Of a stretch of 47,880 nt of DNA, positions 39,001-45,000 are shown piece by piece; positions within the stretch are counted from its first letter, which is position 1, and each line of letters opens with the position of its first letter. Made by a program: the position numbers. Source of the stretch: a virus (taxonomy: Duplodnaviria > Heunggongvirae > Uroviricota > Caudoviricetes); the IMG/VR virus record IMGVR_UViG_2880412407_000003, positions 1-47,880 of that record. One strand, 5' to 3'.

Positions 39001-42000
39001 TCGGTTAAATCAGAGCAGTCACCGCGGGTGGTGCTCTGGGAAATTGACCTGACGGTGCAGGGCGGTGAGCGGTATTTTTTCTGTAATGAGCTGAATGAAA
39101 AAGGGGAGGCGGTCACCTGGCAGGGGCGGCAATATCAGGTATACCCGATTGACGGCAGCGGTTTTGAGATGAACGGGAAGGGCAGCAGTGCCCGCCCGTC
39201 ACTGGCGGTGTCCAATCTGTTCGGTCTGGTCACCGGAATGGCGGAGGACCTGCAGAGCCTGGTGGGGGCCACGGTGGTCCGCCGCCGGGTGTATGCCCGT
39301 TTTCTGGATGCGGTGAATTTTGTGGCGGGCAATCCGGAAGCGGACCCGGAGCAGGAGCTGAGAGACCGCTGGGTGGTGGAGCAGATGTCAGAGCTGACGG
39401 CCATGACAGCCTCGTTTGTGCTGGCCACACCGACCGAGACGGACGGAGCGCTGTTTCCCGGTCGCATCATGCTGGCGAACACCTGTATGTGGGATTACCG
39501 GGGAGATGAATGCGGTTATCACGGTCCTGCGGTGGCGGATGAGTTCGACAACCCCACCACGGATATCCGTAAGGACAGATGCAGCAAGTGCATGCGCGGG
39601 TGTGAGATGCGCGGCATGGTGGCTAATTTTGGCGGTTTCCTTTCCATTAATAAACTTTCGCAGTAAATCCCGGTTTATGACACAGACTGAATCAGCGATT
39701 CTGGCGCATGCCCGGCGGTGTGCGCCTGCGGAGTCGTGCGGCTTCGTGGTGAGAACGCCGGAGGGGGAGAGGTATATCCCTTGTGTGAATATCTCTGCAG
39801 AGCCGGAGGCGTATTTTCGTATTGCACCGGAAGACTGGCTGCGGGCAGAGATGCAGGGGGGAGATTGTGGCACTGGTCCACAGTCATCCCGGTGGTCTGC
39901 CCTGGCTGAGCGAGGCCGACCGGCGGCTGCAGATAAAAAGTGCACTGTCCTGGTGGCTGGTCTGCCGGGGGGACATTCATAAATTCCGCTGTGTGCCACA
40001 TCTGACAGGACGGCGCTTTGAGCACGGGGTGACGGACTGTTACACCCTGTTCCGGGATGCATACCATCTGGCGGGAATTGATATGCCGGATTTTGAGCGT
40101 GAGGATGACTGGTGGCGCAACGGTCAGAACCTGTACCTGGACAATATGGAGGCGACTGGTTTTTACAGGATTTCCCTGCCTTCCGCACAGCCTGGCGATA
40201 TCCTGCTGTGCTGCTTTGGCGCATCGGTGACCAATCATGCCGCCATATACTGCGGCAACGGTGAGCTGCTTCACCATCTGCCTGAACAACTGAGTAAACG
40301 GGAGAGGTATTCCGAAAAATGGCAACGACGAACGCATTCTGTCTGGCGTCACCGCCGCTGGCACGCATCTGCCTTCACGGGGATTTACAACGATTTGGCC
40401 GCCGCCTCAGCCTGTATGTGAACACGGCAGCGGAAGCCATCCGGGCGCTGTCGTTACAGGTGCCGGGATTCCGCCGTCAGATGAACGAAGGCTGGTACCA
40501 GATACGTATTCGCGGTGAGGACACGGCACCGGAGGCGGTGTACGCCCGTCTTCACGAACAGCTGGGTGAGGGGGTGGTCATCCATATTGTGCCGCGACTG
40601 GCCGGGGCCGGAAAGGGTGGACTGCAGATTGTGCTGGGGCGGCAGCCATCGTGGGCTCTTTCTTCACTGCCGGGGCATCAATGGCGTTATGGGGTTCAGC
40701 CCTGGCAGCCGGTGGTTTTTCTGCCACCACGATGCTGTTTTCACTTGGAGCCAGCATGATTCTGGGCGGTGTGGCCCAGATGCTGGCCCCGAAGGCAAAA
40801 ACACCGGATTACCGCGCAACGGATAACGGTAAACAGAACACGTATTTTTCGTCACTGGATAACATGATTGCCCAGGGAACCCGATGCCGGTGCCTTATGG
40901 TGAAATGCTGGTTGGTTCACGACGGATATCCCAGGACATCAGCACCCGTGATGAGGGCGGAGACGGGAAAGTGGTGGTTATCGGGCGGGGATGAAAATAA
41001 AAAATCCCGCAGAGTTAGCGGAGCTGCGGGAGAGAACGATGAAGATTAACGTTATGGAGTTATTTTTCAGGCATCAAAAAAGTAATGCAGCGTCATTATT
41101 GCGGCTACAGGCAATTGCCGGAAATGTGAAGAGTTTCAGAAATTTTATTCCGTCATGACACAGGCACCCTCCGGGGTGCCTGTTGTTTTCTGGCATAAAC
41201 AGATTCAGACATCAGACAGGAGAGGGGGACAGAGTGGGTAAAGGGGGCGGCAAGGGGCACACGCCGGTAGAGGCAAAGGACAATCTTAAGTCCACGCAGA
41301 TGATGAGCGTGATTGACGCCATTGGTGAAGGGCCGATTGAAGGTCCGGTGAAGGGGCTGCAGAGTATTCTGGTGAACAAAACCCCGCTGACGGACACGGA
41401 CGGTAATCCTGTGATACATGGTGTGACAGCGGTCTGGCGCGCCGGGGAGCAGGAGCAGACACCACCTGAAGGCTTTGAGTCCTCCGGAGCTGAAACCGCA
41501 CTGGGCGTGGAAGTGACGAAGGCAAAGCCGGTGACGCGCACCATTACGTCCGCGAACATTGACCGCCTGCGGGTCACCTTCGGGGTGCAGTCACTGCTGG
41601 AGACCACCTCAAAGGGCGACCGTAATCCCTCTTCTATCCGACTGCTGATTCAGTTACAGCGTAACGGTAACTGGGTGACGGAAAAGGATGTCACCATTAA
41701 CGGCAAGACCACCTCGCAGTTTCTGGCGTCGGTGATTCTGGGTAATCTGCCGCCCCGGCCCTTTAACATCCGGATGGTCAGGGAGACGGCGGACAGCACC
41801 ACGGACCAGCTGCAGAATAAGACGCTCTGGTCGTCATACACCGAAATCATCGATGTGAAACAGTGCTACCCGAACACGGCGATTGTGGGGCTGCAGGTGG
41901 ATGCGGAGCAGTTTGGTGGCCAGCAGATGACGGTGAACTACCATATCCGCGGTCGCATCATTCAGGTACCGTCAAACTATGACCCGGAAAAACGCACGTA

Positions 42001-45000
42001 CAGCGGCATCTGGGACGGCAGCCTGAAACCGGCATACAGCAACAACCCGGCCTGGTGCCTGTGGGACATGCTGACTCACCCGCGCTACGGCATGGGAAAA
42101 CGTCTGGGGGCGGCAGACGTGGACAAATGGGCGCTGTATGCCATTGCGCAGTACTGCGACCAGACGGTCCCGGATGGTTTCGGGGGCACAGAGCCGCGGA
42201 TGACCTTTAATGCGTACCTGTCACAACAGCGTAAGGCGTGGGACGTTCTCAGTGATTTCTGCTCGGCGATGCGCTGTATGCCGGTATGGAACGGCCAGAC
42301 GCTGACGTTCGTTCAGGACCGCCCGTCGGATGTGGTGTGGCCGTACACCAACTGCGATGTGGTGGTGGATGATAACGGCGTGGGGTTTCGCTACAGCTTC
42401 AGCGCCCTGAAGGACCGCCACACGGCGGTGGAGGTGAATTACACCGACCCGCAGAACGGCTGGCAGACCTCCACGGAACTGGTGGAAGACCCGGAAGCCA
42501 TACTGCGCTACGGGCGCAACCTGCTGAAGATGGATGCGTTCGGTTGCACCAGTCGCGGTCAGGCCCACCGTGCCGGGCTGTGGGTGATAAAGACCGGACT
42601 GCTGGAAACGCAGACGGTGGATTTCACGCTCGGGTCACAGGGGCTGCGTCACACACCCGGTGACATTATTGAAATCTGTGATAACGACTATGCCGGGACC
42701 ATGACCGGCGGACGTATCCTGTCCATCGATGCCGCCAGCCGCACCCTGACACTGGACCGTGAGGTGACCCTGCCGGAGACAGGTGCCGCCACGGTGAACC
42801 TGATTAACGGCAGCGGTAAGCCGGTGAGCGTGGCCATCACTGCACACCCCGCGCCGGACCGGATACAGGTCAGCACCCTGCCTGATGGTGTGGAGACATA
42901 CGGTGTATGGGGACTCTCCCTGCCGTCACTGCGTCGTCGCCTGTTCCGCTGTGTCTCCATCCGGGAAAACACGGACGGCACCTTTGCCATCACGGCGGTG
43001 CAGCACGTACCGGAAAAGGAAGCCATCGTGGATAACGGGGCCAGCTTTGAGCCGCAGTCAGGCACCCTGAACAGCGTCATCCCTCCGGCAGTGCAGCACC
43101 TGACGGTGGAGGTGAGCGCAGCTGACGGCCAGTATCTGGCGCAGGCGAAATGGGACACGCCGCGGGTGGTGAAGGGCGTGCGCTTCAGTCTGCGCCTGAC
43201 CAGTGGAAGCGGTGAGGACAGCCGTCTGGTGACCACCGCCATCACCGCGGATACAGAGCACCGTTTCAGCGGTCTGCCGCCGGGGGAATACACCCTGACG
43301 GTCAGGGCGATTAACAGTTATGGCCAGCAGGGGGAACCGGCCACCACCACGTTCAGGATTAATGCACCTGCGGTACCCGCCACGATTGAGCTGACACCGG
43401 GCTATTTTCAGATAACAGCGGTCCCGCGTCTTGCGGTGTATGACCCGACGGTACAGTTTGAGTTCTGGTTTTCGGAGACAAAAATCGCAGACACATCTCA
43501 GGTGGAAACCTCTGCCCGTTATCTGGGGACCGGCAGTCAGTGGAGTGTATCCGGCCCGCACATTAAGCCCGGGAAGGATTTCTGGTTTTACGTGCGCAGC
43601 GTCAACCTGGTGGGGAAATCTGCTTTTGTGGAAGCCAGTGGCCGGGCCAGCAATGATGCAGAAGGGTATCTGGGGCTGTTTCGGGAAAAAATAGGAAAAC
43701 TGCATCTGGCTCAGGGGCTGTGGGAGCTGATAGACAACAGCCAGCTTGCGGATGAGATGGCGGAGATGAAGACCTCCATCACCGAAACCCGCAATGAAAT
43801 CACACAGACGGTCAGTAAAACGCTGGAGGACCAGAGCGCCACCATACAGCAGATACAGCGCGTGCAGAAGGACACAAATGATGACCTTGCTGCACTTTAC
43901 ATGCTGAAGGTACAGAAAACAAAAATGGCATACCCTATGTTGCCGGTATTGGAGCGGGGATTGAGGATACTGATGGCCAGCCCCTGAGCAACATACTGCT
44001 GCTGGCTGACCGTATTGCGATGATTAACCCGGAGGACGGCAACACCACGCCGTTATTTGTGGCGCAGGGGAATCAGTTGTTCATGAACGATGTGTTCCTG
44101 AAGCGGCTGTTTGCGGCGAGTATCACGTCATCCGGCAACCCCCCGACGTTTTCCCTGACGCCGGAAGGGAAGCTGACAGCCAGGAACGCGGATATCAGCG
44201 GAGCAATTACCGCGAATACCGGCACGCTCAATAATGTCACCATTAACGAGAACTGTGTCATCAGAGGGAAACTGTCTGCAAACCAGATTGAAGGCGACCT
44301 GGTGAAGACGGTGGGGAAAGCCTTTCCCCGGAATAACAGTTATGCCAGCGGGACGGTAACCGTCACAGTTTACGATGACCAGGGATTCGACCGGCAGATT
44401 ATCATTCCCCCGGTGCTGTTTCGCGGGACGAAACACCAGAATTTCAACAGCCCGAATCAGCAGTCGTACTGGTATTCCACCTGTAAGCTGCAGGTGCTGA
44501 AGAACGGGGTTGAGATTTTCCATGAACCGGCAACGGATGTCAGCCGGGTGTTCTCATCGGTGATAGATATGCCGGCAGGGCGGGGTCATGTCACCCTGAC
44601 GTTTAATGTGTCGTCGGCCGGTGCGAACAACTGGACGCCGACAACGTACATCAGTGATTTACTGGTTGTGGTCATGAAAAAATCCACGGCAGGGATCAGT
44701 ATCAGCTGACGGTTTATTAACCCGGACGGGCACCTCAGGAGGTGCCTTTTTTATTGACTGAAAACAAAGAGGTAATCATGCGGCATTTATACGCAACGAT
44801 ATTATTGTTTACTACCCTGCTGGCAGGAATTGCCTTTCCTGCACAGGCTGAAAGCGGACACGGTGCATTTTCCGTGGGATATGCTCAGGTTCACCCGGGC
44901 GGCGTACCGGCATTGTCCGGTACCGGTGCGCGTGCAGGTGATTTAAAAGGGATTAATGTGAAATACCGTTATGAGTTCACGGATCACCTGGGCGGCATTG

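Follow-up and report, generated by a model that had tools for sequence, protein, structure and literature searches.

In Stx1a-converting phages (Stx1_14040, LC567819; BP-4795) the lambda-type tail-tip genes lie in the order tape-measure gene, M, L, K, I, J, lom and tail fibre, and carry the domains of lambda-type phages, i.e., Prok-JAB and NlpC/P60 in K, Lambda_tail_I in I, and FNIII-A, Ig and receptor-binding domains in J. To our knowledge, lambda K, I and J have no programmed frameshift, the known programmed frameshift of lambda being that of G/GT. The window analysed here (a stretch of 47,880 nucleotides, IMG/VR record IMGVR_UViG_2880412407_000003) displays the same gene order and domains, with ~96% DNA identity between its tail-tip genes and those of the Stx1 phages, but has a 240-bp spacer between I and J, a position occupied by sodC in some relatives. 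In further contrast with these phages, four breaks disrupt its reading frames, and of the terminase, capsid and portal genes present in the intact phages it has lost both terminase genes (small and large), the protease-capsid gene and the greater part of the portal gene.

The window corresponds to a degraded, cryptic lambdoid prophage at the potC site of the Escherichia coli O121:H19 lineage, matching RefSeq O121:H19 genomes at 99.9-100% identity and the potC prophages of 2014C-3599 (NZ_CP027435.1 2184735-2232572) and FWSEC0006 (NZ_CP031910.1), both examples of lineage L1, at 99.94-100%. It has in common with these L1 prophages the locus, the gene content, the IS600-associated deletion of head genes, a frameshift in K caused by a G6 run, and a TccP2/EspF-repeat effector gene, and it also holds several IS insertions. 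It is set apart by four extra one-base homopolymer deletions and one extra IS3-family copy (24485-25793), and the exonuclease gene of 2014C-3599 is interrupted by an IS600 that the window does not have. Particle formation by this prophage is impossible in any case, because it no longer has terminase or capsid genes and keeps only a small part of the portal gene. The first-pass annotation, which had made the capacity to build tails hinge on how the frameshifts are explained, therefore overstated what is at stake; K is moreover already broken in most of the O121:H19 lineage, and intact K, I and J are encoded by a second lambdoid prophage of the same genomes. What the prophage still contributes is likely its cargo, e.g., the TccP2-like effector gene.

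When intact K, I and J of the sister strain 2015C-3107 were aligned to the window by tblastn, each protein was recovered in successive segments that continue in a shifted frame, as had been claimed, and all four single-base changes reported earlier in K, I and J are present. The position of the second change in I, given before only as near 40873-40880, is now fixed to a G3 run at 40875-40877, and the start of I is corrected to the ATG at 40319, so that the gene overlaps the 3' end of K. The features are as follows (frames refer to the tblastn segments).

39677..40421, + strand: gene K, lambda gpK-like tail tip assembly protein (tblastn, Pfam on the intact ortholog)
39677-39859, frame 2: K residues 1-61
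39855-40418, frame 3: K residues 60-247
40319..40994, + strand: gene I, lambda gpI-like tail assembly protein (tblastn, Pfam on the ortholog)
40418-40639, frame 2: first segment of I
40612-40878, frame 1: second segment of I
40875-40991, frame 3: third segment of I
41234..44709, + strand: gene J, tail tip attachment and host specificity protein (tblastn, Pfam on the ortholog)
41234-43963, frame 2: J residues 1-910
43915-44706, frame 1: J residues 895-1158
39856..39861, + strand: K run, G6 (G5 in intact copies), judged real, inherited and copy-specific
40636..40639, + strand: first I site, G4 (G5 in all relatives), private one-base deletion, probable sequencing error
40875..40877, + strand: second I site, G3 (G4 in all relatives), private one-base deletion, probable sequencing error
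40999..41004, + strand: I-J intergenic run, A6 (A7 in all relatives), private one-base deletion, non-coding
43921..43925, + strand: J run, A5 (A6 in relatives), private one-base deletion, probable sequencing error
39268..44116, + strand: near-exact repeat comprising the 3' end of L, K, I and ~2.9 kb of J (comparison with the second lambdoid prophage)

The A6 run between I and J, a fifth change of the same kind, was absent from the earlier annotation.

The identity of the three genes is clear from their orthologs. The intact K of 2015C-3107, which has one G fewer, carries Prok-JAB (E 7.7e-16) followed by NLPC_P60 (E 2.6e-13), i.e., the JAB/MPN-NlpC/P60 arrangement of gpK, and K lies between L (PF05100) and I. 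In the window copy, the extra G shifts the frame by +1 at residue 60, shortly before the HSHP metal-binding motif is reached, and truncates gpK before the JAB catalytic motif. I has two breaks, one at residue 106 and one at residue 186 of 225; the repaired protein matches Lambda_tail_I (PF06805) at residues 15-97 (E 5.1e-15), as expected of a gpI, and the first frameshift falls C-terminal to this domain. In J, the intact ortholog matches seven GpJ-related Pfam domains, among them FNIII-A_GpJ, Phage-tail_3, Ig_J, Ig_J_second, Phage_Tail_Tip and Ig_GpJ_C, and the break at residue 896 of 1158 lies within Phage_Tail_Tip, splitting off the C-terminal receptor-binding domain.

We consider it probable, at roughly 80%, that the frame-breaking changes have two origins, the K frameshift being a genuine mutation and the changes in I, the spacer and J most likely not existing in the bacterial DNA. 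The comparison with orthologous prophages, proposed in the first-pass annotation and carried out here, separates the recurrent G6 of K from the private deletions of I and J. Of the two explanations offered there, decay thus appears to hold for K (G6 in five assemblies), and homopolymer error for I and J (private, in a repeat).

The G6 of K is present at the potC prophage in five independent O121:H19 assemblies, and NCBI annotates K in these five sister genomes as 'C40 family peptidase, frameshifted'. Of 1,949 records, 7 contain an exact 70-mer with G6, which in the five O121:H19 records among them lies at this locus. The near-identical second prophage has an intact K with G5, as checked in three of the five G6 assemblies. 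K is the only one of the affected sites where the same lesion recurs at the same locus in independent related assemblies. From this recurrence, together with the G5 of the second prophage, K is most likely an inherited pseudogene and its defect genuine. Slippage in an ancestor of the lineage would have lengthened the G5 run of this copy to G6, and the extra G would have been inherited since.

That all five changes, K included, are artefacts, and the K, I and J genes of the strain intact, seems very improbable. It is true that the change in K, too, affects the length of a homopolymer, that 2015C-3107 carries G5 at this locus, and that G6 is likewise seen in the noisy MS10711 assembly, which comes from an unrelated strain. 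However, G6 is an insertion, the rarer direction of error (6 insertions versus 101 deletions in 16-9255), it is repeated in five independent assemblies of different strains, and in three of these same assemblies the otherwise identical second prophage was called G5 consistently.

Variation of the K tract, G5 or G6, among O121:H19 strains might also point to functional runs, i.e., to programmed ribosomal or transcriptional slippage, or to phase-variable tracts switching the tail-tip genes. At 2015C-3107 the K tract is G5 at the potC locus with no other change nearby, as opposed to G6 in five strains, but the G5 of 2002-3211 arrives with a recombined patch and is not a tract-only change. K, I and J are continuous reading frames in essentially all relatives, with intact alleles dominating by hundreds to thousands of records, and the frames are annotated as uninterrupted in LC567819 and 2015C-3107. 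The tracts are moreover short (3 to 6 bases), one of the affected runs is non-coding, K belongs to a dead prophage, and the I and J tracts are invariant in other strains. A functional role of the runs is considered very unlikely.

The remaining changes present a very different picture. Over 35500-45300 (9.8 kb), the only private differences of the window with respect to six O121:H19 genomes are four one-base homopolymer deletions, with no private substitution, and over the whole 47.9 kb there are four private indels versus at most one private substitution. The I and J alleles occur in none of these six high-quality comparison genomes. More broadly, the G4 allele of the first I site has no full-length exact match among 1,724 complete-genome records carrying the segment, and the G3 allele of the second site is found at >=99% identity in none of 434 such records; in IMG/VR, G4 at the first site is present in 0 contigs versus at least 120 with G5, and the deleted allele of the second site gives 0 matches. 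For the A5 of J, three records reach >=99%, and the two inspected, 16-9255 and 99-3311, match the exact 70-mer over its full length; in both of these noisy assemblies frameshifts affect L, K, I, J, Lom and further genes. The noisy 16-9255 assembly of this same prophage contains 101 deletions and 6 insertions, the majority of them in homopolymers of at least 4 bases.

Residual homopolymer errors, which persist in repeats of 454, Nanopore or PacBio assemblies after short-read polishing, are likewise one-base deletions. All four private differences of the window (4/4) share this character, being private to one assembly, confined to homopolymers, all deletions, devoid of neighbouring substitutions and concentrated in a multi-copy region, and 16-9255 and 99-3311 display the same signature, including the same change at one site. 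An exact-product look-up found no record of the N-terminal fragments of J, I and K or of the TTG-started C-terminal fragment of K, while the C-terminal fragment of J and the GTG-started fragment of K matched only genes cut by contig ends and one unrelated noisy draft, which has A6 at the J site; since the N-terminal K fragment, expected in five genomes, was also missed, the negatives of this look-up have little power.

All four deletions are contained in a 4.85-kb repeat that recurs in the second lambdoid prophage carried by these O121:H19 genomes (P ~1e-4), and all fall within 3.3 kb (P ~0.001). Few differences separate the window from the second prophage of FWSEC0006 across 39268-44116, and over 40789-44116 these amount to only 3 SNPs and three deletions of the window. 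Against the second prophage of 2002-3211, exact stretches of 593, 624 and 2119 bp are observed, two of which end exactly at a deletion.

The comparisons show that the four deletions are private, of one type, placed in the repeat and unlike the change in K; the error mechanism and the sequencing platform we infer. The two deletions in I, together with those in the spacer and J, are probably uncorrected sequencing errors, i.e., homopolymer under-calls that would have remained in one particular assembly, and that may have survived error correction because the 4.85-kb stretch is nearly exactly duplicated and short reads could not be placed uniquely. Likely sources of the window are the complete L1 genomes that lie outside the collection searched, 51104, E15042 and RM8352. 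Methods prone to homopolymer errors were used for two of them, 51104 (454 and Sanger, corrected with 65-bp Illumina reads mapped by MAQ) and E15042 (R9.4.1 Nanopore and Illumina, assembled with Unicycler) (PMC8767318).

IS repeats free of indels and the genuine private IS insertion of the strain count against the error reading. Copies of IS600, of an IS3-family element and of IS66 in the window (an estimated ~9 kb in total) are repeats too, yet have no private indel. A model in which every repeat remains unpolished is therefore rejected, and an extra assumption is needed, possibly that exact repeats were corrected well and near-identical ones were not. The IS3-family copy at 24485-25793 is private to the window and judged a genuine insertion, implying some private evolution of the source strain: in a collection of 5,426 complete E. 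coli genomes, from which three O121:H19 L1 genomes (AP024471, CP028110, AP024478) are absent, no genome has the private double-IS junction and none matches a 2-kb window query at 100%.

The commonest mechanism of real indels is also homopolymer slippage, which likewise weighs against sequencing error, and all five changes could in principle be real, four further slippage deletions having followed the lineage-wide K frameshift in a functionless remnant under relaxed selection. The prophage is clearly decaying, with its head and packaging genes deleted and several IS inserted, K is truly broken, the strain has its private IS insertion, and homopolymers are natural sites of slippage. Nevertheless, we regard this scenario as unlikely. 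Private indels number four in the 47.9 kb and private substitutions one at most, whereas base substitutions outnumber indels ~10:1 in E. coli mutation-accumulation studies. Furthermore, the absence of selection extends evenly over the prophage, but the four changes are confined to 3.3 kb that coincide with the intragenomic repeat. All four (4/4) remove a base, as read errors typically do, and one of them is intergenic, so that nothing ties the changes to gene inactivation. Finally, a donor copy with the I alleles is absent from the 5,426 complete genomes, and the idea that the I deletions were acquired from a decayed paralogue by gene conversion was rejected since these alleles are in no record of the collection. 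Alternatively, the four private deletions could be real and created together, e.g., by error-prone repair synthesis during gene conversion between prophage tail modules, which would explain their clustering in the 4.85-kb repeat without substitutions; we give this little credence, although, if true, inter-prophage recombination in EHEC genomes could itself inactivate tail genes.

With sequencing error as the preferred reading for I, the spacer and J, the finding is an ordinary one, because these changes resemble homopolymer errors in a long repeat and the prophage is already dead, and it changes little in the biology of the strain. It does call for caution: where a genome has the same gene in more than one prophage, a frameshift may be left over from assembly, and copy-resolved reads should back it before decay of the prophage is claimed. 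In the present case, the comparison with sister genomes tells K, most likely an inherited pseudogene with a genuine lesion, apart from the two changes in I and the one in J, which are probably artefacts. Nine clustered substitutions in J (41636-41801), considered as a possible sign of mis-polishing, were rejected as such: all nine are common to FWSEC0006 and seven to GTVSS-020, and they therefore represent real polymorphism.

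The window is a lambdoid prophage adjoining potC in the Escherichia coli O121:H19 lineage. A megablast search of 5,426 complete E. coli genomes with positions 39400-41400 returned six matches at ≥99%, two of them recorded as O121:H19 and one as O121, the remaining three being strains listed as O121:H19 lineage L1 (PMC8767318). NZ_CP027435.1 (2014C-3599) and NZ_CP031910.1 (FWSEC0006) are 99.94-100% identical over the whole window, bar IS differences. The tail-tip genes are of the lambda type, with L and M upstream of K, I and J, and lom and tail-fibre genes downstream; when repaired, K carries the Prok-JAB and NlpC/P60 domains, I carries Lambda_tail_I, and J the complete GpJ domain set.

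The first-pass annotation had reported single-base indels at four sites in K, I and J, all of which were found, with run lengths differing from those of intact relatives.

Homopolymer length changes in the tail-tip region
39856-39861, run in K: G6 in the window, G5 in intact relatives
40636-40639, first run in I: G4 in the window, G5 in intact relatives
40875-40877, second run in I: G3 in the window, G4 in intact relatives
40999-41004, non-coding run in the I-J spacer: A6 in the window, A7 in all six sister genomes
43921-43925, run in J: A5 in the window, A6 in intact relatives

As had also been claimed, the proteins continue in the shifted frame, with 93-100% identity each time to the intact K, I and J of 2015C-3107 (tblastn), and reading is interrupted at residue 60 of K, residues 106 and 186 of I and residue 896 of J. 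The spacer change, absent from the earlier list, is a fifth of the same type and, being intergenic, argues against any gene-directed process. Programmed or phase-variable frameshifting is scarcely credible, as reading frames are uninterrupted in essentially all homologues.

Alignment of positions 35500-45300 with the same prophage in six complete O121:H19 genomes separates these changes into two classes. The K G6 run is common to five of the six (2014C-3599, 2014C-3655, GTVSS-020, FWSEC0006 and 2014C-4423), in all of which K is annotated by NCBI as frameshifted, and only 2015C-3107 has G5. The sole private differences in this 9.8 kb are four one-base deletions, at 40636, 40875, 40999 and 43921, with no private substitution relative to the six genomes. 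Nine clustered substitutions in J (41636-41801) represent real polymorphism, since FWSEC0006 carries all nine and GTVSS-020 seven. Extending the comparison to all 47.9 kb, with two genomes as reference, adds just two private changes, an additional IS copy and base 45852, whose allele is also found elsewhere among phage tail-fibre genes. The choice initially posed between decay and sequencing error appears best split, decay fitting K and error fitting I and J. We assign a probability of about 0.8 to this mixed reading, in which the K mutation is real and inherited and the changes at both I sites, the spacer and J are assembly errors.

For K, the change is an insertion, the rarer direction of error, and five strains, assembled independently, all have G6 at the copy next to potC; in three of these assemblies a second prophage carries an otherwise identical, intact K with a G5 run. 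This reproducible, copy-specific pattern suggests a real mutation and contradicts the reading that all changes, K included, are errors, which we consider very improbable. Intact K at potC occurs in two strains, 2015C-3107, where it differs in the G run only, and 2002-3211.

That second lambdoid prophage, which has a different tape-measure gene, lies at 2.77 Mb in FWSEC0006, 2.58 Mb in 2014C-3599 and 2.68 Mb in GTVSS-020, and the 3' end of its L, its K and I and the 5' part of its J are almost identical to window 39268-44116. Across 40789-44116, three SNPs and the window's three deletions there are the only differences between the window and the FWSEC0006 second prophage. The second prophage of strain 2002-3211 matches the window in exact runs of 593, 624 and 2119 bp, two of which stop precisely at a window deletion. 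The potC copy in that strain carries a recombined patch from 39856 to about 41800 with different, intact alleles of K and I, suggesting sequence exchange between paralogous tail modules. Substitution-dense patches separate otherwise identical prophage copies among O121:H19 strains (41636-41801, 22582-22647, 45477-46307 and the patch in the 2002-3211 prophage, L140); some match other prophages, and by sequence they look like gene conversion between paralogous prophages.

This 4.85-kb repeat (39268-44116) contains all four private deletions and 9.6% of the window's homopolymer runs (chance ~1e-4); likewise, the four fall within 3.3 kb of 47.9 kb (P ~0.001 for a random draw of four homopolymer sites). 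Short reads would not be uniquely placeable in the repeat, so that homopolymer miscalls of the primary technology would stay uncorrected. In character (one base, homopolymer, deletion) the private changes exactly match the errors of the noisy assembly 16-9255. Over 12 kb, the copy of the prophage in that assembly shows 101 deletions, 6 insertions and 35 substitutions relative to 2014C-3599; the deletions are mostly in runs of at least four bases, and they include the same A6-to-A5 change in J. That all the length changes are instead real is unlikely: every private indel is a deletion, they are confined to the repeat though the whole prophage is unselected, and four stand against at most one private substitution, whereas in E. 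coli mutation accumulation substitutions exceed indels by about 10:1.

Allele look-ups with 70-base queries, each centred on one run, gave for the first I site (G4) no full-length exact match in the 1,724 records with the segment, and for the second (G3) no record of 434 reaching 99%. Among IMG/VR contigs, none has the deleted allele of the first I site, against at least 120 with the intact one, and none has that of the second. The J allele (A5) was seen full-length and exact in 16-9255 and 99-3311, and one further record reaches ≥99%; both named assemblies are visibly noisy, with L, K, J, Lom and further genes (and I in 99-3311) annotated as frameshifted or fragmented. The K allele (G6) is exact in seven records, namely five O121:H19 genomes, the noisy MS10711 and SCPM-O-B-9504.

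The sequencing literature on L1 fits uncorrected errors, if the window derives, as we infer, from 51104, RM8352 or E15042. The 51104 complete genome combined Roche 454 and Sanger data, corrected by 65-bp Illumina reads mapped with MAQ, and E15042 combined R9.4.1 Nanopore and Illumina in a Unicycler assembly (PMC8767318). A weak point of the mixed reading is that the IS copies of the window, also repeats, have no private indels; it must assume that exact repeats were accurately corrected or assembled and the near-identical 4.85-kb repeat was not. Short-read draft contigs of other strains (L142, GCA_012389835.1; L143, GCA_012538175.1) start directly after the K G-run, at window 39862, which is consistent with assembly graphs branching at this run between the K paralogues.

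Several genes that the intact relative Stx1_14040 has are missing from the window: those for the small and large terminase, the protease-capsid gene and the first portal gene. Of the second portal gene just the C-terminal half survives (31701-32357), adjoining IS600 elements (28104-31703; two of them full, with partial repeats of 400 bp) that have taken the place of ~7.6 kb carrying head and packaging genes. The sister genomes share this deletion, and the element is a cryptic remnant regardless of whether I and J are intact. The bearing on tail production, earlier held to depend strongly on the explanation chosen, therefore matters little: terminase, capsid and most of portal are gone, most of the O121:H19 lineage already has an inactive K, and another prophage in the same genome encodes intact K, I and J. 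Cryptic prophages with frameshifted tail genes are well known, as are homopolymer errors left over in repeats, and nothing here indicates a new mechanism; the useful outcome is that one real pseudogene is set apart from three probable artefacts and the tail-making question is shown to be moot.

A 1.3-kb IS3-family element (24485-25793), 94% identical to a neighbouring copy at about 23040-24350 and ~130 bp from it, has a short target duplication. This double arrangement is in none of the compared O121:H19 genomes nor in any record among the 5,426 genomes, and the element is truly private to the source strain. IS600 load varies between close strains, and the exonuclease gene (1963-4434, minus strand) is intact in the window and FWSEC0006 and IS600-interrupted in 2014C-3599. 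An IS-excision enhancer has been reported in O121:H19 (PMC9397093). The 240-bp I-J spacer (40995-41233) contains a hairpin-like sequence (cccgcag...ctgcggg) and appears to be a cargo-insertion site, as some relatives (L011, L013, L142) have a reverse-oriented sodC at this position. At the prophage end (47128-47880, minus strand) lies a TccP2/EspFu-like EspF-repeat effector gene, likely the selectively relevant cargo of the remnant, with four 47-residue repeats (141-bp DNA repeats) and a product identical to WP_012817749.1 of sister genomes.
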